Shown one piece after another: positions 2,103 to 38,607 of a DNA stretch of 64,000 bases. The notes below the pieces were generated by a model. That model saw only the letters and a list, made by a program, of their open reading frames with translations. It did not search any database and was not told where the DNA came from. Position numbers and translations under genes: made by a program. Location: NCBI GenBank assembly GCA_015059405.1, contig SVAL01000001.1, forward strand, positions 72,032 through 136,031, read 5' to 3'. This stretch comes from Bacillota bacterium. Its GTDB lineage: Bacteria; Bacillota_I; Bacilli_A; RF39; UBA660. Within the stretch, counting starts at the first letter, position 1. Each line of letters begins with the position of its first letter.

Positions 2103-3359
2103 TTAATTTTTTATAGATAAAACAAGTTGTTTTGCTTTTTCTGATTTGGGTGATGTTACCTTTAATTCTGTTAAAATATTTACTGCTTTATTTGCTTGTT
2201 GTTTATCTAAATTATTATTTCTTTGTATAGCATCTATTACATGATCGTGTAGTAGATGTTTTTCTTTTTTTGCTTGTGCAATTGCAAAACTAGTATTAAT
2301 CATTTCAAGTAGTAATCCCGGATTTTTTTGTTTAGTAATAAAATTAATACTTGTTGTTTTAGTAGTTCCAATTAATACTGTTATAATATCATCTAAATAT
2401 TCTTTTATACCATTTATATTAATACCTGTTCTTTTACTTTGATCAATAAAGGATTTTTTTGCTATTTCTATTAATTCTTCTTCAGTTGGTTCTTTTAATT
2501 CTATTACATCAAAATTATCTTTTAATAAAGAATTTTTCTTATATGTTTCTAAATCAACAGATGCGATAATTTTAATATTTTCTCTTTCTGCTGCATAACG
2601 AAGTAGAGCAATTACATTTACATTATCTTCATTTGCATCTAATATTTCATCTGCATTGTCGATATATAGAATAGCTTCTTGGTTTTTTGTATAAGTAATT
2701 ATTTCTTTTATTAGTTTATCTATATCTTTTGGTTTTTTAGCTGCTTTTATACTTGGAATATTTATTTCAAATATTTGTTTTTTTCTTAAAAAATCAGGTA
2801 CTTGATTATGTTGAATGAGATAAGCTAGTTGCTCAACTAGTGCAGTTTTCCCTGTACCATTTTCTCCAGTTATTAAAGTTATTTTTTTATTCATTGCTAT
2901 TGAAATCATTAATGTTTCTAGTTCTTTGTCTTTTAAGTAACTAGGAGGTGTTGTAAATGCTTTTTTATTTAAAATAGTTATTTCTTGAGGTTCATCTAAT
3001 TTTAATTTTTCTATTGTCATTACATAACCATTTTCATCGTTTAAAGCATTATATATTCCAATTAGTTCACTTTTAGTGGCATAACCATTTTGTAGTAATT
3101 TATCTTTAAATGTACTAGGTTTAAATACTGATATTAAAGATACTGGATTAAATGCTACAGTTTCACCTACGTTAGAGCGATAATCATTACTTAATCTATA
3201 ACTATTATTAGTAAAGATATCAGTATACCAATAATGATCATATGAATCTTTTTTTCTTTTACATATAATAGTTTCTTTAGCATATGTAGTATTACTTGAC
3301 TTTACTCCTATATGTACTACAAAAAGATTATCTATTTTGTATTTTTCTTCTCTTGGCAT
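2103..3359 (-). CDS. AAA+ ATPase with a ClpA/B D1-like P-loop domain and an unknown N-terminal domain
   Basis: Walker A 'ITGENGTGKTALVEQLAYLI' followed by 'QVPDFLRKKQIFEINI' resembles Clp/Hsp100 D1. Walker B-like 'ILYIDNADEIL'. Confidence 0.65.
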   Translation of the reverse strand: MPREEKYKIDNLFVVHIGVKSSNTTYAKETIICKRKKDSYDHYWYTDIFTNNSYRLSNDYRSNVGETVAFNPVSLISVFKPSTFKDKLLQNGYATKSELIGIYNALNDENGYVMTIEKLKLDEPQEITILNKKAFTTPPSYLKDKELETLMISIAMNKKITLITGENGTGKTALVEQLAYLIQHNQVPDFLRKKQIFEINIPSIKAAKKPKDIDKLIKEIITYTKNQEAILYIDNADEILDANEDNVNVIALLRYAAERENIKIIASVDLETYKKNSLLKDNFDVIELKEPTEEELIEIAKKSFIDQSKRTGININGIKEYLDDIITVLIGTTKTTSINFITKQKNPGLLLEMINTSFAIAQAKKEKHLLHDHVIDAIQRNNNLDKQQANKAVNILTELKVTSPKSEKAKQLVLSIKN

Positions 3360-3408
3360 TTATTTCACCTCTTTAATAGTCGTATTTATTATTATATATT
3401 ATTATTTA

Positions 3409-4674
3409 TTAATAGTTAACTCTTTTTAAGTATTTTAAAAATGTTTTTCGTTTTTGTTTTTCTTCTAAGTTTTTAAATCTTTCTTTTATTTCTTCTTTTG
3501 TTTTTGGATCCATATTGATATTTTTTTGATCTAATGCTTCAATAAAATCTTTTTTACTTATTACTTTATCTTTTTTTCTTTTAATATTTTTACTACTTGA
3601 TATTAGAAAAGCATTATATATTATTTGCATTCCTAATTTTGGGTTTTTAGTTGTATTTGTCATATTATTACTACTTATTTTATCTAGATCTATTAATATA
3701 TCAATTATGTCTTCTTTTGAATAATTTATTTTATATTTTTTGTCTTTTTCTATTTTATTTAAATAAAATTCAAAAATACTTCTTTTTATATATTCTTTTG
3801 TTTCTGTTACTTCTATATATCTATATTTAGAATTATTTAAATCTATATCTTTTTTCTTTGAAGCAACTAGTACTAAACCTATATTTTCATCTTTTGATAA
3901 TGTAGTTAGTGTTTCTAAAAAGAAAGTATCTTTCATATCAATATTATCTATTACTAATAGGTTACAATTAATGTTTTTTAAGAACTCTAGTGCTTTTTTT
4001 ATTCTATTTTTTACGTGTTTAATAGTTTTTGTTTTATTTAACATTTCTAAATAATCCATCATAAAAATTTTGTTTATATCAATATATGTACTATCATTTT
4101 TAGCATAATATAATAGTTTATCTACTAGTGTTGTTTTACCAATACCATTATCTCCATAAATTACAACTGGTTTTGGATTTGTTCTAATTGATGCGATTAG
4201 TTCAGTTAATTCATTTTCTTCTTCATCTAATAGAGGTATAATCCATTCATATGTTTTAGCATAAGTAGGTGCTTTATATTCTGCTCCTTCATATTTCCAA
4301 GTATATGTTTCATATTCAGTATCAGTATTTAAATCATTATAAAGATCTATTAAATCAAAATTAGTTATAAATCCATCTCTTAATATAGTATTTTTTCTTT
4401 CTTCTGGAAGAAGAGAAGTTAAAGTAAATATTTTGATAGGTTTTATTTCATTTGTATCGTTTGGAATATAATTATTTTTAGTTAATAAATCAAGATAATA
4501 GACATTACCATTTTCATCTGTTTCTTTTTTACATATAGATACTTCTATTATGTCTTTATCATCACCTATATATATGGCATATAAATCTTTAAGTGGATAT
4601 TCAATTTTCTTTTTTCCTCTAGGATTTTCGAATGGTTCGAAAATAATATCTTTATTGGGAATTGACATAAGCAT
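3409..4674 (-). CDS. AAA+ ATPase, tandem paralog of 2103-3359
   Basis: Walker A 'IYGDNGIGKTTLVDKLLYY' and Walker B-like 'LLVIDNIDMKD'. Same length class as its neighbour, and the N-terminal motifs are colinear (e.g. 'RDGFITNFDLIDLYNDLN' versus 'QNGYATKSELIGIYNALN'). Confidence 0.65.
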   Translation of the reverse strand: MLMSIPNKDIIFEPFENPRGKKKIEYPLKDLYAIYIGDDKDIIEVSICKKETDENGNVYYLDLLTKNNYIPNDTNEIKPIKIFTLTSLLPEERKNTILRDGFITNFDLIDLYNDLNTDTEYETYTWKYEGAEYKAPTYAKTYEWIIPLLDEEENELTELIASIRTNPKPVVIYGDNGIGKTTLVDKLLYYAKNDSTYIDINKIFMMDYLEMLNKTKTIKHVKNRIKKALEFLKNINCNLLVIDNIDMKDTFFLETLTTLSKDENIGLVLVASKKKDIDLNNSKYRYIEVTETKEYIKRSIFEFYLNKIEKDKKYKINYSKEDIIDILIDLDKISSNNMTNTTKNPKLGMQIIYNAFLISSSKNIKRKKDKVISKKDFIEALDQKNINMDPKTKEEIKERFKNLEEKQKRKTFLKYLKRVNY

Positions 4675-4752
4675 ATAAACACCTCTTTTGTAAGTTTATA
4701 TTATAATATATTTAAAAAAATATTTAAAGAAATATTTAATATTTTAAGGATG

Positions 4753-4761
4753 TGTTATAAT
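4753..4761 (+). promoter_or_regulatory. Extended -10 promoter element (TGTTATAAT) for tcdA
   Basis: Matches TGnTATAAT and lies ~20 nt upstream of the RBS/ATG at 4782. Confidence 0.4.
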
Positions 4762-4781
4762 CAGTTTAGAGGTGAAGGAGT

Positions 4782-5495
4782 ATGAATCAATTTTCTAGAA
4801 GTGAATTATTATTAGGTAGAGAAGTTATGGCTAATTTAAGTAGAATGAAAATTCTTATTTTTGGTATTGGTGGTGTTGGCTCGTATGTTTGTGAGGCTTT
4901 AGTTAGAAGTGGAGTTAAGAATTTTGTTTTGGTTGATAGTGATAAGATTTCTCTTACTAATGTTAATAGACAGATTCATGCTACTTTAAAAACTGTTGGT
5001 AGAAGTAAAGTAGAAGTTATGAAAGAAAGAATGCTAGAGATTAATCCAGAGTGTAATATTACTATTTTTGAAGAGTTTTATTTACCTGATAATCATTCAA
5101 ATATTATTAATGATGATATAGATTATATAGTTGATGCGATCGATACTATCTCTGCTAAAATAGATATTATTGTTGAAGCTAAAAAGAAAAATATTCCTAT
5201 TATTTCAGCAATGGGAGCAGGTAATAAATTTGATCCAACAAGATTTGAAGTTACTGATATTTATAAGACTAGTGTTTGTCCACTGGCAAAGGTTATGAGA
5301 AGGGAATTAAAGAAAAGAAAAATTACTTCATTAAAAGTTGTTTATTCTAAAGAAGAACCTATTGAGATTTTAGATTATTCTTGTTGTATAGAAGATATGG
5401 ATAAAAAACGTGTTCCTGGTTCTTTAGCTTTTGTTCCTTCTAGTATGGGACTTATTATTGCTAGTGAAATAGTAAAAGATGTTATAAATAAATAG
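4782..5495 (+). CDS. tcdA: tRNA threonylcarbamoyladenosine dehydratase (ThiF/MoeB-fold, TcdA/CsdL family)
   Basis: 'ILIFGIGGVGSYVCEALVRSGV...LVDSDKISLTNVNRQIHA' and 'DYIVDAIDT' are colinear with E. coli TcdA. Strong RBS GGTGAAGGAG. Confidence 0.8.
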   Translation: MNQFSRSELLLGREVMANLSRMKILIFGIGGVGSYVCEALVRSGVKNFVLVDSDKISLTNVNRQIHATLKTVGRSKVEVMKERMLEINPECNITIFEEFYLPDNHSNIINDDIDYIVDAIDTISAKIDIIVEAKKKNIPIISAMGAGNKFDPTRFEVTDIYKTSVCPLAKVMRRELKKRKITSLKVVYSKEEPIEILDYSCCIEDMDKKRVPGSLAFVPSSMGLIIASEIVKDVINK

Positions 5496-5563
5496 TTTTC
5501 TTATTGATATTTTTATGATATAATATGGAGACTTTTAAGAATTAAAAAGAAAAGGGTGATATT

Positions 5564-6907
5564 ATGAATTTAAAAGAATTTAGAAATTTATTAGAAGAAA
5601 AGAAATTTGGAGAAATTAAAGCTTTATATAAAGAAATGAATGAATTTGATATATCGGTATTAATAGGGGATTTACCAATTAATCTCTTAAAACAAGCTTT
5701 TAGATTATTACCAAAAGATATAGCTAGTGATGTTTTTTCTAATTTTGATATAGATTTACAACAAGATTTAATTGTTGCTTTAACTACTAAAGAAGCAACT
5801 GATATTATTGAAGATATGTATAGTGATGATGCTGCGGATTTATTTGAAGAAATGAGTGCAGGGGTAGTTCAAAAGATGCTTAGTAAAGTTGATAAGAGTG
5901 TAAGAGATGATATTAATGCACTTTTAAAATATCCTAAGAATTCAGCAGGATCTTTAATGACTGTTGAATATATTCATTTGAAAAAGGGTCTTACTATTAA
6001 AGAATCAATAGAAAGAATTAGAAAACAAGCTGATGAAATAGTTAGTTTTGATAATTGTTTTGTTACTGATAATAAAAGAAAGTTATTAGGTACTGTTTCT
6101 GTTAAGGATTTACTTATTAATAATCCTTTTGAACTTATAGATGATATTATGGAAGAATGTGAACATCCAATTACTACTTTAATGGATCAAGAAGATGTTG
6201 TTAAAGTCTTCCAAGATTATAATTATAATGTTTTACCAGTTGTAGATAGTGAAGGTTTACTTGTAGGTATTATTACAATAGATGATGTTATGGATATTAT
6301 GGAACAAGAAGCAAGTGAAGATATGGAGTTAATTGCAGGGGTAATACCAACAGAAGCTGAGGTTCCATATTTAAAACAAAGTATTTGGAGTATTTATAAA
6401 AGTAGAATGCCTTGGTTGTTATTTTTAATGATTAGTTCAATTTTTACTGGAAAGATTATTTCTAGTTATGAAAATGCTTTAGGTACATATGTTATTTTAA
6501 CAGCGTTTATTCCAATGATAATGGGGACAGGTGGTAATGCTGGTAGTCAGGCATCTGTTACTATTATTCGTGCTTTATCTTTAGATGAAGTTAATTTTAA
6601 GGATTTATTTCGTGTTATTTGGAAAGAACTTCGTATATCATTTATTTGTGGTCTTACTTTAGCATTTTGTAATTTCTTAAAACTAATTTGTATTGATAGT
6701 ATTGCAATGGATGTGTCTTTAGTTATTTCTATTACATTAGTTTTAACTATTTTCTTAGCTAAAGTAATTGGTTCTATTTTACCAATATTTGCAGAAAAGT
6801 TTAAAATGGATCCAGCTGTTATGGCAAGTCCTTTAATTACTACTATTGTTGATGCAGGTAGTTTAATGATATATTTTAAAATTGCTTGTATCTTATTAAA
6901 TATTTAG
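5564..6907 (+). CDS. mgtE: Magnesium transporter MgtE
   Basis: Has the MgtE N-domain, tandem CBS region and C-terminal TM domain with 'MGTGGNAGSQASVTIIRAL'. Confidence 0.9.
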   Translation: MNLKEFRNLLEEKKFGEIKALYKEMNEFDISVLIGDLPINLLKQAFRLLPKDIASDVFSNFDIDLQQDLIVALTTKEATDIIEDMYSDDAADLFEEMSAGVVQKMLSKVDKSVRDDINALLKYPKNSAGSLMTVEYIHLKKGLTIKESIERIRKQADEIVSFDNCFVTDNKRKLLGTVSVKDLLINNPFELIDDIMEECEHPITTLMDQEDVVKVFQDYNYNVLPVVDSEGLLVGIITIDDVMDIMEQEASEDMELIAGVIPTEAEVPYLKQSIWSIYKSRMPWLLFLMISSIFTGKIISSYENALGTYVILTAFIPMIMGTGGNAGSQASVTIIRALSLDEVNFKDLFRVIWKELRISFICGLTLAFCNFLKLICIDSIAMDVSLVISITLVLTIFLAKVIGSILPIFAEKFKMDPAVMASPLITTIVDAGSLMIYFKIACILLNI

Positions 6908-31467: not shown

Positions 31468-31544
31468 GGCGATGTAGCTCAGCTGGCTAGAGCGCCTGGT
31501 TCATACCCAGGAGGTCGGGGGTTCGATCCCCTCCGTCGCTACCA
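31468..31544 (+). tRNA. tRNA-Met (anticodon CAU; elongator-like, though an Ile2-lysidine tRNA cannot be excluded)
   Basis: GGCGATGTAGCTCAGCTGGCTAGAGCGCCTGGTTCATACCCAGGAGGTCGGGGGTTCGATCCCCTCCGTCGCTACCA. The anticodon loop is TTCATAC. A paired G1-C72 argues against an initiator tRNA. Confidence 0.9.
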
Positions 31545-31746: not shown

Positions 31747-32080
31747 ATTATTTTTAAATGAAATAATAGAAAAAGAAATTATTATAATTGATAATTATGC
31801 TGGTAAAGAGTTGTTGGATATTTTAAAAGATTTAGATAAAAATATAATAATTGTTTCTAAAAATATTAGTGAAAAACTAAATAAAAAATATATGAAACAA
31901 TATAATAATGTGAAGTTTATAGATAATGATTTGTTTCATGATCGTTTTGTAATTATTGATAGATATTATTTGTATTCTAGTGGCGCTTCTTTTAAGGATT
32001 TAGGTAAGAAGTGTTTTGTTGTTAATGAGTTTAGGGATAAATATTATTTAGATAGAATATTAAGTGAAATTGGGGTTTGA
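31733..32080 (+). pseudogene. Probable 5'-truncated gene remnant; only the C-terminal part of a protein ending '...HDRFVIIDRYYLYSSGASFKDLGKKCFVVNEF...' survives
   Basis: The frame is open back to 31733, inside the upstream terminator hairpin, and encodes '..EIIEKEIIIIDNYAGKELLDIL'. It has no in-frame ATG or GTG and no RBS; the only candidate start is the TTG at 31811. Confidence 0.4.
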
Positions 32081-33979: not shown

Positions 33980-34032
33980 TTTTATTTATTATATATTTAT
34001 GTTATTATTTAATTATGATAGGAGGTTATCTT

Positions 34033-34362
34033 ATGGGATTTTTTAGTAATTTATTTAAAACAAAAAGTGAAGTAGAAGAAGATTATATGTCTACATCTTA
34101 TTTAATACCAGCATATTTTTCTGGATTTCCTATATATCAAAAGAAAATTGTTTCTCCACCTGAAGAAAAAATTACTGATAGATATAATCGTTTAGAAATA
34201 TATTATTCAGGTAAACCTTTAAAGGAATATATTGAATTATTACAACAACAAGGTTTTGTTAGGGAAACTGATGTTAGGTTTAATAAGGGACATAATTGTT
34301 ATGTTATAGTTGAAAAATTATATGGTAATAAAACAAAAATAGCTTATCATATTGCTAGATAA
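34033..34362 (+). CDS. Hypothetical protein (109 aa)
   Basis: Start moved to the ATG at 34033, behind RBS AGGAGG (34021-34026). Convergent with the RT gene; the two stop codons are 1 nt apart. Confidence 0.5.
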   Translation: MGFFSNLFKTKSEVEEDYMSTSYLIPAYFSGFPIYQKKIVSPPEEKITDRYNRLEIYYSGKPLKEYIELLQQQGFVRETDVRFNKGHNCYVIVEKLYGNKTKIAYHIAR

Positions 34363-34365
34363 GCT
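34341..34365. terminator. Bidirectional hairpin spanning both convergent stop codons
   Basis: agcttatc-N9-gataagct: 8-bp stem with T-rich tracts on both strands (attttttcttttt on +, atttttgtttt on -). Confidence 0.45.
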
Positions 34366-35560
34366 ATTTTTTCTTTTTGTCTTTATAGTATTCATTTATT
34401 AATGATTTATAATTACATTTTTTTAATAATTCATAAGGGACTTTTTCATAGTTCTTTTTATTATGTTTTCCTGTAATTAAATATCTCAATTCTTGTTGCA
34501 TATATTCATCTATTATTTTTAATGATTTATCAGTATTAATAGTTGGAAAATACCAATATTTCCATGAGAGTTCATTTTCTTCTTTACCAAAAAATTTTTT
34601 ATTAAATTTTTTAGTCATTGTTTTTATTGCTGATTCTTGTTTAACATTTTTCTTTAGCATCCATCTTCTTATGCTTTTAGAACTTCTTTTGATTTTCTTT
34701 TTTATTTTTGTTAAGGAATTACTGCTTATATCAATTTCGTTTGATTGGATAGAAAATCCTAAATATTCTATTTTATTATTTGGCAGATAAAATATTTCTT
34801 TTTCTTTATTTATATTTAATTTTTTTGTATTTAAAAACTCTTTTATTATAGTTATGTATTTATTTAAATTGTCTTGATTATCTGAAAATATTATGATGTC
34901 ATCGGCGTATCTAAAATAATTTATATTATTATCATAAAAATATTTATCCATATCTTTTAAATAATAATTGGCTAAAAATGATGAGATTGGAACTCCCGCC
35001 ATAATACCTTTTTCTTCATTAATAATTTCATCTTTATATATTATTTGTTTATTTTCTAATAATAATTTAAATAATTTATATAATTTTTGATCATCTAAAT
35101 CTTTTTTTAAATCTTTTAGTAATATTTTGGTATCAACACTATTGAAATAGTTTTCAATATCTAATTTATATCCATATTTTTGATTAGGTTTAATTTTTAT
35201 TAAATCATTAATTGCGTTTTTGACAGATTTATTTTGTCTAAATGAATATAGATTTGGAGTAAATAAATAATCATATTTATATAATAAAAAAGTTAAATAT
35301 TTTAAGATATATGTTTCTTCTTTATTATATTGATATACAATTCTTTTTTTATTTTTCTTTATTTTATTAATTATAGTTTTTTTAGGTATTGAAAATACAT
35401 AATTATTATTTTGTATTTTTTTTATGATTTGTTTTACATTTTGATCATCTTTAAGTTTTTGATAATCTTTTATTTCTTTTTTAGAAAATGTATTTTTTGT
35501 TTTATGAATGATAAATTTATCTAAGTATATATTATTATCTAATAAGTCTATTAAACTCAT
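34364..35560 (-). CDS. Free-standing reverse transcriptase (RNA-directed DNA polymerase) with fingers, palm and a helical thumb/maturase-like tail; no endonuclease or other fused domain
   Basis: RT motifs appear in order: 'KRIVYQY' (1), 'YSFRQNKSVKNAI' (2), 'YGYKLDIENYFNSVD' (A), 'KGIMAGVPISSFLANYYL' (B), 'YFRYADDIIIFS' (C, YADD), 'LNINKEKEIF' (6), 'IEYLGFSI' (7). The C-terminal 'SWKYWYFP...LKIIDEYMQQELRYLITGK' is thumb/X-domain-like. RBS GGTGGTG. Confidence 0.85.
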   Translation of the reverse strand: MSLIDLLDNNIYLDKFIIHKTKNTFSKKEIKDYQKLKDDQNVKQIIKKIQNNNYVFSIPKKTIINKIKKNKKRIVYQYNKEETYILKYLTFLLYKYDYLFTPNLYSFRQNKSVKNAINDLIKIKPNQKYGYKLDIENYFNSVDTKILLKDLKKDLDDQKLYKLFKLLLENKQIIYKDEIINEEKGIMAGVPISSFLANYYLKDMDKYFYDNNINYFRYADDIIIFSDNQDNLNKYITIIKEFLNTKKLNINKEKEIFYLPNNKIEYLGFSIQSNEIDISSNSLTKIKKKIKRSSKSIRRWMLKKNVKQESAIKTMTKKFNKKFFGKEENELSWKYWYFPTINTDKSLKIIDEYMQQELRYLITGKHNKKNYEKVPYELLKKCNYKSLINEYYKDKKKK

Positions 35561-35578
35561 AAGTTACACCACCAAATA

Positions 35579-35715
35579 TGAGGTAGAATTCTCTTTTGAG
35601 AATAATATAATATTTATTATATTATATCGACTAGACTAAATATATTAAGATTACCTGCACAATCATTTTTATAATATACTTCATCCTTTGCAGGTGTTTA
35701 AAAACATCTACCTCA
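35579..35715 (-). ncRNA. Candidate structured non-coding RNA upstream of the RT (retron msr-msd-like or DRT-type ncRNA)
   Basis: On the minus strand the 5' UGAGGUAGA (35715 to 35707) and 3' UCUACCUCA (35587 to 35579) form a perfect 9-nt inverted repeat. Inside it are a 7-bp hairpin (35653-35659 / 35689-35695), a 10-bp A/T hairpin (35602-35611 / 35616-25) and a 6-bp hairpin (35588-93 / 35598-603). The region lies between a promoter and the RT RBS. Confidence 0.45.
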
Positions 35716-35720
35716 AAAAA

Positions 35721-35729
35721 ATTATATCA
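35721..35729 (-). promoter_or_regulatory. Extended -10 promoter (TGATATAAT on the minus strand) driving the ncRNA-RT transcript
   Basis: The reverse complement of attatatca is TGATATAAT. Five T residues separate it from the first inverted-repeat arm, which puts the predicted TSS at ~35714-35713. Confidence 0.5.
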
Positions 35730-35801
35730 TATAAAAGAAAAATATTTAAAAATAAAATATTTTATGGTAGTCTAATAAGTATATTATTTACTGGGGTGAT
35801 T

Positions 35802-37097
35802 ATGATGGAAAAGGTTCCTTATAATTATATTGGTTTATTAACTTTTTTAAATATATTAAAATATGAAAACGTTAGAAAGATAAAAAAGATAGATTTTGAT
35901 AGATATCGTGATCTTTTAATTGAGAGGGTTAAAGATGAGACTAAGTTATTAGAGTTTTATCCGGTAGAAGAAGATTCTTTTGATAGTTTTTTAGATAAAT
36001 ATAGTGATATTATTTCTTTTGATGGAGAAGTTTTGTATTTAGATAAAGATATTAGTTTATCAGAAGTAGAAAAGAAAGTAGCTGAAATTCAAAAAGAAGA
36101 AGATATAGATGATATTTTTGATGTATTTGATTATCAAAGACAAATGCTTAATATTTTAGGTATTTCTTCTATTTACAACACTTTAAAGCAATATTGGGAT
36201 TTAGAAAGAAAAATAGAAGATATTTATATGAATTTAGATAAGAAAATAGATCCTAATTTAAAAAAGTATTTATTATGGCGTGGAATATTTTTAATTAATT
36301 TTAAGAATGCCAGTAGTTCTTTAATAGATGCGATTAAAAGCACATCTACTAGTATTGGTTTTGAAGAAGATGATTTTGATTATGAGGATTTTCCGATAGA
36401 TTTTACACATTTTGAATATCCTGATAAATATTCTAAAGATAAGGATGATTTATTTGATGATGTTAGTGATAGTTTGTTTTGGATATATCAATATGCCATT
36501 TTTGGAGATGAGTCTTTAAGTGCTCAAAAATTATGGAAAGATATTGATTATATTTATATGCATGAGTTGGATTCTTTAGAAGAGACAGAAGAGTTTGTTG
36601 AAGTTGATCCTTTCGAAGAGATAGATTTTTCTTTGTTTGATGATGAAGAGATAACAGAAATATTAAATGATGATTCTGATGAAGCTGATTATTTATTTTA
36701 TTTATTATATATTGATAAGATTAATGCTTTTAATGATGAATATGGAGAACAAGATGAATTATTAAAAGTGAAGAAAAGACTTTTATATGCTTTAGATAAA
36801 CCAGAAGTTTGTTTATTTAAAGATAGTAATTTTAAAGTAGAGTTAGAAAAGACTAGAGATGAGAATGAGGCTACTTTTGAACTTTTTAGTGACGAAGTTA
36901 GATATATGTCGAGTGAAGTGTTTTTAGTTCCTTATAATAAGAATACTCTTAAGAAGCTGTTGTTTATTTCTACTTATTATGAATTAAGTGAAGATGAAGT
37001 AGTTAAAGATATAATTGATTCTTATTCAGAACATGAACAATATAGTTTTTATAAAAGAGTTGTTTTTGGTGAACAAAAAAACAAAAGAAAACTATAA
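35802..37097 (+). CDS. Highly acidic hypothetical protein (431 aa), divergent from the RT locus
   Basis: Start moved to the ATG at 35802, behind RBS GGGGTGA. The track's TTG at 35688 would run through the RT promoter and ncRNA region. The protein has D/E-rich segments and no motif I recognise. Confidence 0.55.
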   Translation: MMEKVPYNYIGLLTFLNILKYENVRKIKKIDFDRYRDLLIERVKDETKLLEFYPVEEDSFDSFLDKYSDIISFDGEVLYLDKDISLSEVEKKVAEIQKEEDIDDIFDVFDYQRQMLNILGISSIYNTLKQYWDLERKIEDIYMNLDKKIDPNLKKYLLWRGIFLINFKNASSSLIDAIKSTSTSIGFEEDDFDYEDFPIDFTHFEYPDKYSKDKDDLFDDVSDSLFWIYQYAIFGDESLSAQKLWKDIDYIYMHELDSLEETEEFVEVDPFEEIDFSLFDDEEITEILNDDSDEADYLFYLLYIDKINAFNDEYGEQDELLKVKKRLLYALDKPEVCLFKDSNFKVELEKTRDENEATFELFSDEVRYMSSEVFLVPYNKNTLKKLLFISTYYELSEDEVVKDIIDSYSEHEQYSFYKRVVFGEQKNKRKL

Positions 37098-37836: not shown

Positions 37837-38607
37837 ATGGATGGAAATAATAAAGAATTAAATATAAATAATAATAGTATTGATTCTAATAATGTTAATC
37901 AAGAAAATGTTGTTGGAAATAATGAAAATATAGTTATTAATACTAATACAGGTAATGAAACTATAAATAATGAAACTAATAATGTTGTTGTTAGTGAAAG
38001 TGTTAATAACGATAATGTTGTAGTAGAAGAAGTTAGTTTTAATTATCCAGAAGAGGTAAATACTTCAACTACAGAAACTAATACAACCTTGGAAGATGTA
38101 AATACAAATGTTGAAGTTAGTGCTCCTGCCCCTGTTGTTACAACAACCATAGAAGAAGTTAGTGTTAGTGGAACTTCTTTAGATGAAGTTGAGACTTCTA
38201 GTAATAGTGTTTTTAATGAAAAAAGTGAAGATATAGTTAGTGGAAGTATGAAAGAAGGACAAGAACATCGTGCTGAAAAAAAGGGAATTCCTTATGGAAT
38301 GTTGATTGGATTTGGAATTTTAATTGTTTGTGCTTTCTTTATTGAAGAAATAGTCGGTTTTGTTGAAGATTATCTTTTACCTAAAGACGAAGTGGTAGAA
38401 GAGAATAAAAAAGATGATAAGGAAACTGATAAGAAAGAAGAAGGAAAAGAAGATAAAGAAGAAGAAAAAGAAGAGGTAATTCCTGATAATAACGAAAATG
38501 ATGAAATTACTAATGATGATGTAGTTAATGATAATTCTAATGATTTAGAAGATGATACAAGTACAGATGTTAATGTAGATGATAATTCTTTTAATGATGG
38601 AGAATAG
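37837..38607 (+). CDS. Low-complexity single-pass membrane protein (Asn/Val/Glu-rich N-terminus, Lys/Glu/Asp-rich C-terminus)
   Basis: Central TM helix 'GIPYGMLIGFGILIVCAFFIEEIVGF'. The flanks are compositionally biased. Confidence 0.5.
   Translation: MDGNNKELNINNNSIDSNNVNQENVVGNNENIVINTNTGNETINNETNNVVVSESVNNDNVVVEEVSFNYPEEVNTSTTETNTTLEDVNTNVEVSAPAPVVTTTIEEVSVSGTSLDEVETSSNSVFNEKSEDIVSGSMKEGQEHRAEKKGIPYGMLIGFGILIVCAFFIEEIVGFVEDYLLPKDEVVEENKKDDKETDKKEEGKEDKEEEKEEVIPDNNENDEITNDDVVNDNSNDLEDDTSTDVNVDDNSFNDGE

Follow-up and report, generated by a model that had tools for sequence, protein, structure and literature searches.

What does a free-standing reverse transcriptase (RT) do with the structured RNA that is encoded just ahead of its gene? 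The question is raised by a locus of a Bacillota bacterium, lying within a 64,000-nucleotide stretch of DNA, the whole of which was analysed and is called the window here. An initial annotation tied the RT to a promoter-proximal structured RNA, a reading that is borne out by an Rfam match, covariation and co-occurrence, and it left two options: a retron variant, or a defence RT of the DRT/UG kind with an upstream ncRNA. The second of these survives our analysis and the first does not. Nor is the locus of a type that cannot be assigned, as the annotation had it, since both parts are already catalogued, the RT as PADLOC RT_UG26 and the RNA as Rfam RF03026 (RT-5). The identity of these two parts is close to certain. 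The module is of a known kind, and for the window this amounts chiefly to a correct label, not a discovery. What is gained by the label? In the literature searched we found no description of an RNA partner, a DNA product or a biological role for UG26, and each class 2 system studied (DRT2, DRT3, DRT9 and DRT10) has exposed a new route of DNA making. The present analysis supplies RNA boundaries with a conserved promoter, a structure backed by covariation, a candidate template and an overlooked partner gene.

The RT gene is as first described, a minus-strand open reading frame of 398 codons with a complete RVT_1 domain, the only domain found by Pfam, and with YADD (residues 218-221) in columns that are invariant among 41 relatives. 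Comparison with the published UG and retron profile sets, which had been suggested as a check, gives RT_UG26 as the best model by far (469.7 bits, E 1.6e-141), aligning residues 1-396 of the protein with positions 1-397 of the 398 in the model; the runners-up are UG17 (116.5 bits, E 3e-34), then UG4, UG27 and Drt9. By these profiles the RT is a UG26 enzyme, of a class 2 UG/Abi group, and is not a retron, group II intron or diversity-generating retroelement RT. The AF2 model (pLDDT 92) has fingers, palm, thumb and a helical tail, and the nearest solved folds are the GsI-IIC RT (TM 0.75), DRT9 and G2L4, in keeping with the earlier remark that the thumb looks group-II-like. The C-terminal helix of the model (residues 387-397) bears a conserved E-Y/F-Y motif. 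An invariant C-terminal priming tyrosine was considered and dropped: the motif is frequent, yet there are exceptions among 80 loci, and the candidate tyrosine is variable, with H, W or F at position 392 in about nine of them. Mestre et al. (2022) treat UG26 among the class 2 groups, listing 35 members, nine with a COG2852 (YcjD-like) partner; they report no ncRNA for the group and grade its defence association inconclusive (PMC9226505). Experimental work on any UG26 member was not found in the literature searched. The window RT resembles the group as described there in its size of about 400 aa, its lack of an extra domain and the occasional small accessory protein, and differs in that the partner here is another, undescribed, convergent gene and that RT-5 RNA is also present.

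How far does the RNA extend? RF03026 matches positions 35598-35699 of the window over its full length (model positions 1-104 of 104) with 48.1 bits, against a gathering score of 45.7, and it exceeds that score in 12 of 15 homologous loci tested. A covariance model built here, R1, matches 35576-35718 with 103 bits (E 8e-20). Apart from RT-5, the only RNA families that Rfam identifies in the window are three tRNAs. The RT-5 motif was described by Weinberg et al. (2017), who assigned it no function and speculated on retrons (PMC5737381). The window RNA shares with that motif the full 104-position model and the place beside an RT gene, but P1 and most of P2 lie outside the Rfam model, the match stops within P4, and the pseudoknot, between the unpaired 5' tail and the P3 loop, does not appear in the structure line given for it. 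Compared with its shuffled versions, the leader has the better fold (z = -2.8). The inverted repeat had been thought unlikely to arise by chance, and indeed, when the 170-nt leader was shuffled 20,000 times with its dinucleotides preserved, a perfect 9-nt repeat with at least four G/C turned up just 22 times; without the demand for G/C, 20% of the shuffles contain a 9-nt repeat. The features of the locus are collected in Table 1.

Table 1. Features of the UG26/RT-5 locus, in window coordinates
Feature	Position	Strand	Description	Basis
Predicted promoter	35721..35750	-	sigma-70-type: -35 TTTAAA (35750-35745), 18-nt spacer, extended -10 TGATATAAT (35729-35721)	consensus scan
Whole ncRNA	35579..35715	-	about 137 nt; core of Rfam RT-5, extended by closing helix P1	Rfam, covariance model R1
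P1 5' arm	35707..35715	-	UGAGGUAGA, 'a1' of the initial annotation; exact complement of 35587-35579	
P2	35696..35705	-	small hairpin, 3-4 bp in the window; first base G35705	covariation, RNAalifold
Pseudoknot 5' strand	35689..35695	-	ACCUGCA, pairs with 35659-35653	covariation
P3	35633..35686	-	long interrupted stem; apical loop with pseudoknot 3' strand UGCAGGU (35659-35653)	Rfam alignment, RNAalifold, pair counts
P3 segments		-	P3a 35686-83 / 35636-33; P3b 35679-72 / 35647-40; P3c 35664-61 / 35652-49	
P4	35602..35628	-	all-A/T hairpin in the window	self-complementarity, RNAfold
J4/1	35588..35599	-	single strand UCAAAAGAGAAU between P4 and P1 3' arm; candidate template	conserved pattern
P1 3' arm	35579..35587	-	UCUACCUCA, 'a2' of the initial annotation; exact complement of 35715-35707	
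RBS of RT gene	35567..35573	-	GGUGGUG, 6 nt ahead of ATG	read from sequence
UG26 RT	34364..35560	-	class 2 UG/Abi reverse transcriptase, no extra domain	PADLOC RT_UG26, Pfam, AF2
Shared hairpin	34339..34367	.	arms ATAGCTTATC and GATAAGCTAT, flanking A and T runs; probable two-way terminator	read from sequence
Convergent partner gene	34015..34362	+	B type, 115 aa (109 aa from conserved MGFFSNLF at 34033)	conserved position

The two arms of the repeat are exact complements, as the annotation stated, and covariation in homologous loci, which it had proposed as a check, marks them as the closing helix P1: each of its 10 pairs has changed in both partners, and pairing is kept in 98% of cells among 75 distinct sequences. 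The terminal stem averages 11.5 bp when both arms come from the same locus and 8.1 bp for permuted arm pairs, with none of 1000 permutations as high. All four modelled pairs of P2 covary, with 90.6% of cells paired. The 7-bp complementarity of 35695-35689 with 35659-35653 is real but is a pseudoknot, not the local hairpin for which it was first taken; six of its seven pairs are doubly changed and 98.2% of cells are paired, in a helix that was not part of the model that produced the alignment. Variants of the pseudoknot in the raw sequences include CUUGCA/UGCAAG and AUCUAUAA/UUGUAGAU. In the P3 helices (4-6 of the pair count) 94-98% of cells are paired and 15 of 16 pairs covary. The A/T hairpin of the annotation, P4, is present with 35602-12 opposite 35615-25, and RNAfold favours the register 35628-19 / 35613-04; a hairpin of unrelated sequence and variable length occupies this place in almost all homologues. 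A further 6-bp hairpin (35603-598 / 35593-588) can form in the window but is not conserved as such; it is the alternative in which the 3' half of J4/1 pairs with the end of P4. Across loci, potential pairing of this half with the 3' strand of P4 is weakly enriched (3.67 versus 3.36 bp, reached in 1 of 2000 permutations). For the whole structure, the share of paired cells is 96.8%, compared with 72.9% in shuffles and 44-49% when the 3' partners are slid by 1-3 columns as a control, and 35 of 37 pairs have compensatory changes.

The homologues came from an alignment-based scan of a genome collection, in which a single-protein query had given no match, and comprise 80 loci from gut and rumen bacteria and archaea (81 with the window). 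They form part of a larger set of at least 540 genome loci. The RNA lies beside the RT gene at all 80, recognised by R1 in 77 and by Rfam in the other three. The extended -10 box of the annotation was verified and is joined by a -35 box, and in those Bacillota homologues that have no upstream partner gene the RNA model begins 4-8 nt after the end of a TATAAT-like box, which is often of the TGn form and often accompanied by TTGACA at -35. The placement of the predicted promoter relative to the RNA start is conserved among homologues.

At the other end of the RT gene there is a convergent gene ending at 34362, and a hairpin (34339-48 / 34358-67) whose 3' arm holds both stop codons, just as the annotation had described. 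The hairpin is probably a two-way terminator; the terminator scan made no call on it. The accompanying claim that the locus has no recognisable effector and no linked neighbour has to be given up. Genes of the same type, which we call B, lie downstream of the RT and convergent with it in 17 of the 81 loci (window included), where the other flanking genes are unrelated, and by this conserved position the 115-aa gene is a partner of the RT-RNA module, with a putative role in its action. The B-type family forms 98 clusters without a Pfam domain or a name. The window protein has no Pfam or PADLOC hit, RTasCOG2852 included, and no fold match in the PDB (best E 0.085); in its AF2 model (pLDDT 77) a small beta-beta-alpha-beta-beta-beta domain comes after a disordered peptide at the N-terminus. 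Partners of another type, A/C, which PADLOC names RTasCOG2852 (E 6e-60), occur in 34 of the 81 loci, one of which encodes a fusion of the A/C and TIR domains, and 30 loci lack a recognisable partner. By hhalign, the B type and the COG2852 type have the N-terminal peptide alone in common.

How might these parts work together? A sigma-70-type promoter would start the transcript at the 5' arm of P1, and the transcript would fold first into the RNA of about 137 nt (RT-5 plus P1, P2 and the pseudoknot) and then run into the RT gene, while the convergent gene abutting the RT 3' end would supply a small partner protein. By analogy with DRT2, DRT3, DRT9 and DRT10, the RT would bind the RNA as a stable particle, and a short internal single strand may be copied repeatedly into DNA, possibly primed from the protein itself. 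The DNA product and the partner protein would then act in conflict with phages or other mobile elements. We put the probability of the overall reading, in which RT and RNA form a particle and a short template within the RNA is copied again and again, at roughly 0.6; it leans on the iterative copying of ncRNA templates by class 2 UG RTs (PMC12632851). Its parts deserve different weights. That RNA and RT form a particle acting beyond a cis leader is likely. Whether the product is a repetitive, RNA-templated cDNA is, by the same analogy, about an even bet, and we would give a defence role similar odds.

The relatives on which the analogy draws are alike in some respects only. DRT10 (UG17; PMC12632851; 10.64898/2026.06.29.735271) is itself an RT with an ncRNA and a SLATT protein, and carries out telomerase-like synthesis of tandem repeats. 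Its RT is likewise a class 2 UG RT, UG17 being the second-best specific model for ours (116 bits), and the shared points include an ncRNA (here of about 137 nt), a short single strand with a helix on either side (here J4/1, a candidate template), and an RT C-terminal helix with hydroxyl residues nearby. The RT group and the RNA fold are different, the fold here having a pseudoknot and a closing helix; a SLATT partner is absent; and the A-B-A' arrangement that is the hallmark of a DRT10-type template is without statistical support. DRT9 (UG28), an RT with an ncRNA that makes poly-dA by protein-primed synthesis, is among the nearest solved structures (TM 0.58-0.66, 20-22% identity) and likewise has its ncRNA upstream of the RT, and few genes. 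The Drt9 model reaches 89 bits, and RT-5 has no conserved poly-U tract, J4/1 consisting of U(C/U)AA and variable bases.

If the particle is real, is it an immune system? A function that is housekeeping or selfish, of the sort suggested for UG4 and UG27, is unlikely but is the alternative to be taken most seriously. The models of these two groups come among the runners-up for the RT, the association of UG26 with defence islands was found inconclusive (PMC9226505), and the window neighbours are mostly housekeeping genes, the sole nearby defence trace being a fragment of a candidate defence gene. Against this must be set that all UG RTs so far tested are antiviral, and that the COG2852-type partners and the one TIR fusion resemble defence effectors. 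The module also sits in unrelated genomic contexts across phyla and domains, like defence genes, and viral contigs yielded distant RTs alone, the best at 21-33% identity. Bacillota and Bacteroidota of gut and rumen commonly carry the module, which has also passed into methanogenic archaea, so that it may matter for phage-host dynamics in those habitats.

A related issue is whether the RNA acts in trans at all. One might think that it is merely a cis-acting element of the 5' UTR, for instance a leader to which the RT binds to repress its own translation. The 3' arm of P1 ends 5 nt before the RBS, and from the end of the RNA to the RT start codon it is 19 nt; the scan of the window found neither a terminator nor a second promoter between RNA and open reading frame, so a cis role on the mRNA is possible in the window; and in 74 of 78 loci the RT gene follows immediately on the RNA. 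In the remaining four, from archaea and Eggerthellaceae (L007, L010, L025 and L040), the RNA comes after the RT stop codon, in the same orientation, a position that speaks against its being a plain 5' UTR, and in the two of these whose open reading frames were listed (L010 and L040) no second RT follows the downstream RNA. Moreover, a pseudoknotted four-helix RNA kept across phyla is more elaborate than known autoregulatory leaders, and for every characterised class 2 UG RT the neighbouring ncRNA is template and scaffold. We consider a purely cis-acting leader quite improbable.

Could the whole RNA, and not a short strand of it, be the template? In DRT2, which is reported to be likewise a class 2 UG RT with an upstream pseudoknotted ncRNA, the analogous scheme is rolling-circle reverse transcription, here of the entire P1-enclosed RNA, into a concatemer encoding a stop-free 'neo' gene. 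The closing helix joins the RNA ends as template jumping needs, but the window RNA has at least two stop codons in all six frames, as does L001 in every frame, stop-free frames among the homologues follow no consistent strand or frame, and the Drt2 models give the RT only 52-64 bits. This scheme is very improbable for UG26.

The retron reading of the initial annotation, in which P1 is the a1/a2 pair, the enclosed RNA is msr-msd and G35705 is the branching guanosine that primes msDNA, is scarcely credible. The order of elements (promoter, inverted repeat, structured RNA, inverted repeat, RT) is indeed that of retrons such as Ec86, and some public records name relatives 'retron-type reverse transcriptase'. 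The RT falls outside the retron models, however: the PADLOC retron RT models give at most 60 bits against about 470 for UG26, NCBIfam retron_St85 gives 65.3 bits against a cut-off of 235, and EYLGFSI and NAIND stand in place of the VTG and NAxxH motifs. The G that the annotation placed at 35705 is present, but it is paired and covarying in P2, where the pair is GC in 53 of the 75 sequences, AU in 13, CG in 3 and GU in 2, and it therefore does not qualify as a free and conserved branching G. The Rfam search gave no match to a retron msr at E up to 1, and nothing resembles the long hairpin that serves as msd template. Two further candidates were rejected: a group II intron, for although the GsI-IIC RT is the best structural match and TIGR04416 the best NCBIfam hit, the latter reaches 132.6 bits against a cut-off of 300, the open reading frame lacks flanking ribozyme domains and the window has no intron RNA match; and a diversity-generating retroelement, the window containing no second copy longer than 24 nt of any part of 35541-35760.

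Returning to the particle that copies a short internal strand, which strand would be copied? We chose J4/1 as the candidate because it is the sole length-constrained single strand framed by two helices. In 70 distinct homologues it lies between P4 and P1, has 8-12 nt (12 in the window) and reads U(C/U)AA plus a further 4-8 nt; P4, which borders it on the 5' side, would be a boundary element, and P1 borders it on the 3' side. The assignment of the template to J4/1 is tentative, and we think it less probable than otherwise. A bolder proposal is that UG26 plus RT-5 is one more particle that adds repeats in the manner of telomerase and DRT10, set apart by three features: a core of closing helix, pseudoknot, boundary hairpin and template strand of about 10 nt; interchangeable small partners, of the COG2852 type, the undescribed B type and others; and a shared N-terminal peptide, MG(L/F)(F/L)xxL, that would dock these unrelated partners to the particle or to its DNA product. 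Under such a proposal the component list of RT-5 is nearer to the template/pseudoknot core of telomerase RNA than are the DRT9 or DRT10 RNAs. Taken jointly, these features make an improbable whole.

Are there traces of repeat addition in the sequences? Scans of metagenomes for hypothetical tandem-repeat cDNA gave no match to the window-type pattern, and ordinary microsatellites alone to a Prevotella-type repeat pattern. Around J4/1 the window has an A-B-A' arrangement, AUUCU...AUUCU, which repeats at 14 nt. Such an arrangement is not significant across loci (equalled in 512 of 2000 permutations and 48-98 of 1000 shuffles, p about 0.05-0.1), and for this reason we do not count it as evidence. 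Repeats near J4/1 that are confined to single loci are seen in L002, with 8 nt and a period of 12, and in L013, L065 and L071, with 6 nt.

The RT gene belongs to a kind of locus that is catalogued and experimentally unstudied. PADLOC's RT_UG26 model matches the encoded protein end to end (E 1.6e-141, 469.7 bits); the runner-up group-specific models are UG17 (116 bits), then UG4, UG27 and Drt9, and no PADLOC retron model exceeds about 60 bits. Against the NCBIfam group II, Drt3a, retron and Drt2 models the protein falls far under every cut-off, and its nearest solved folds are GsI-IIC RT, DRT9 and G2L4. The initial annotation had read the locus as retron-like or defence-RT-like, with no recognizable effector; a defence-type RT with an ncRNA stands, and neither the retron nor the lack of a partner does. 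UG26 is covered in the class 2 section of Mestre et al. 2022 (PMC9226505), with 35 members, 9 of which have a COG2852 (YcjD-like) neighbour; no ncRNA is reported there, and the defence prediction is graded inconclusive. No characterization of UG26 or RT-5 was found in the literature searched. Within its family the locus is unremarkable. What our analysis adds is the consistent link of RT-5 to UG26, a closing helix and a pseudoknot in the RNA, loci with the ncRNA 3' of the RT, and a second partner family.

Features of the RT locus and its homologues (window positions, or positions in the fetched locus named)
Feature	Position	Strand	Remark
RT gene	34364-35560	minus	398-aa ORF, complete RVT_1 domain
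Convergent partner gene	34015-34362	plus	B type, conserved family
Extended -10 box TGATATAAT	35729-35721	minus	-35-like TTTAAA 18 nt upstream
9-nt exact complements	35715-35707 and 35587-35579	minus
7-bp pairing	35695-89 with 35659-53	minus
A/T hairpin	around 35602-35628	minus
6-bp hairpin	35603-598 with 35593-588	minus
Single strand J4/1	35599-35588	minus	between P4 and P1
Downstream RT-5 RNA	L007 5880-6006; L010 4227-4355; L025 1300-1414; L040 5165-5304
Partner N-terminal peptide	window 34033-34056; partner genes of L024-L080; L007 4139-4636

The upstream features named in the initial annotation are all present where it placed them, and its remark that the 9-nt inverted repeat is unlikely by chance is borne out. 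The window is 25% G+C. When the 170-nt leader was shuffled 20,000 times with dinucleotide content kept, 22 shuffles contained a perfect 9-nt inverted repeat with at least four G/C; A/T-only 9-nt repeats are common, occurring in 20% of the same shuffles. The Rfam RT-5 motif (RF03026) lies at 35598-35699, scoring 48.1 bits against a gathering score of 45.7. RT-1 to RT-19 were defined merely as motifs near RT genes, with no function given (Weinberg et al. 2017, PMC5737381). Our covariance model, built from nine sequences, detects the ncRNA in the window and in 77 of the 80 homologous loci fetched (L001-L080), and Rfam RT-5 detects it in the other three. In an alignment of 78 sequences standard pairs occupy 96.8% of cells, versus 72.9% for shuffles, and sliding the 3' partners by 1-3 columns lowers pairing to 44-49%; two-sided changes occur in 35 of 37 pairs.

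The inverted repeat forms the closing helix, P1, with covariation at all ten pairs and pairing in 98% of cells. A register-free test gave a mean within-locus terminal stem of 11.5 bp versus 8.1 bp for permuted arm pairs, and none of 1000 permutations reaches the observed mean. The 7-bp pairing, earlier taken for a local hairpin, is real as a pairing, and instead makes a pseudoknot by joining the 5' tail to the apical loop of the long stem P3. Six of its seven pairs covary, with 98.2% of cells paired, and the pseudoknot was absent from the model that produced the alignment; raw sequences carry variants such as CCUGCA/UGCAGG, CUUGCA/UGCAAG and AUCUAUAA/UUGUAGAU. G35705, just inside P1, is the first base of the small hairpin P2 and covaries, and so is no branching G of the retron kind. 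Nearly all loci form a hairpin at P4, with sequence and length unrelated from one locus to another. The 3' half of J4/1 shows a small enrichment in complementarity to the 3' strand of P4 (3.67 versus 3.36 bp permuted, 1/2000). P4 and an alternative small hairpin (window 35588-35603 and equivalents) would be mutually exclusive; they may form a conformational switch.

Is this RNA merely the 5' UTR of the RT gene? In Bacillota loci without an upstream partner gene, a -10 consensus box, often TGn-extended and often with a TTGACA -35, ends 4-8 nt 5' of the ncRNA, which would put the transcription start at P1. In four loci, three archaeal (L007, L010, L025) and one from Eggerthellaceae (L040), the ncRNA is encoded on the RT strand and directly follows the RT stop codon, which argues that it is a separable partner of the RT. 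No second RT gene follows it in L010 or L040, the loci with ORFs listed. These archaea belong to Methanomassiliicoccaceae and Methanomethylophilaceae.

The convergent gene, in which no effector had been recognized, represents a family found downstream of the RT and convergent with it in 17 of 81 loci (the 80 and the window), directly abutting or overlapping the RT 3' end in 13 of the 17. The flanking genes vary by locus, two window flanks being common to the closest relative, L001, only. The family comprises 98 clusters in a 5.8-billion-protein database, without Pfam domain or name; its AF2 model (pLDDT 77) has a disordered N-terminus, then a beta-beta-alpha-beta-beta-beta domain, for which a PDB fold search gave no match. 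Thirty-four other loci have an upstream, co-oriented partner matching PADLOC RTasCOG2852, and 30 of the 81 have no recognizable partner. The two families are unrelated apart from an N-terminal MG(L/F)(F/L)xxL peptide; an upstream ORF of a third type, in archaeal L007, starts with it too. The fuller form, MG(L/F)(F/L)(S/D)x(L/I), then a disordered linker, begins the COG2852-type, B-type and archaeal third-type partners alike, whose C-terminal domains are unrelated. Directly upstream of the ncRNA and RT in L055 is an 876-aa protein (2945-5575) in which TPR repeats and a TIR domain (44 bits against a cut-off of 28) are joined to a C-terminal COG2852-type domain; this fusion is the one direct hint of an abortive-infection-type effector. 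A paralogue without the COG2852-type domain is encoded 4 kb downstream. The RT and partner stop codons of the window are 1 nt apart within one arm of a shared hairpin (34339-34367), and the 3' ends overlap by 11-30 nt in at least seven loci (L012-L016, L018, L020), so that the two mRNAs would be mutually antisense at their ends.

The RT family is large: a protein search gives 596 proteins at E up to 1e-10, and a species-genome scan at least 540 relatives. Hosts among the matches listed include gut and rumen Bacilli, Clostridia, Erysipelotrichaceae, Prevotella, Alistipes and Eggerthellaceae, and the archaeal Methanomassiliicoccaceae and Methanomethylophilaceae; in gut habitats the RT module has evidently passed between the two domains. 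The viral contigs searched hold distant RTs only, with no close relative.

What might the enzyme synthesize? Structure and associations are observed; for mechanism we infer from relatives. Class 2 UG RTs repeatedly copy a neighbouring ncRNA (PMC12632851): DRT2 by rolling circle, DRT9 from a poly-U tract, and DRT10 (UG17; DRT11 is UG5) in a telomerase-like manner that makes 7-9-nt repeats. Priming in DRT9 and DRT10 is reported to be from a C-terminal Ser or Tyr after a conserved helix. The C-terminal helix of the present RT (AF2 model, residues 387-397) bears a common E-Y/F-Y motif, which is not invariant among relatives. By analogy, J4/1, which is U(C/U)AA followed by 4-8 nt, would be the strand fitting class 2 geometry, and we tentatively suggest it as a candidate template. 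The P3b/P3c internal loop has on its 5' side the other long unpaired stretch, which ranks lower because its length varies and L014 and L015 have a hairpin inserted in it. A DRT2-like reading fails because the window's RNA has stop codons in each of its six frames. An A-B-A' signal around J4/1 was not significant, and metagenome scans for hypothetical repeat products were uninformative. The UG26 family is a good target for learning what uncharacterized class 2 RTs synthesize.

Flanking the RT module on its divergent side are two genes (35808-37097 and 37837-38607, both plus strand) for long, very acidic, low-complexity proteins without Pfam or PADLOC match, the nearer without counterpart in the other fetched loci. 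An 89-aa ORF (31811-32080, plus strand), 2.3 kb from the module and beside a tRNA (31468-31541), matches only the C-terminal part (214-299 of 306) of PDC-S05, a PADLOC candidate defence protein (E 9e-18), and looks like a decayed defence gene next to a tRNA.
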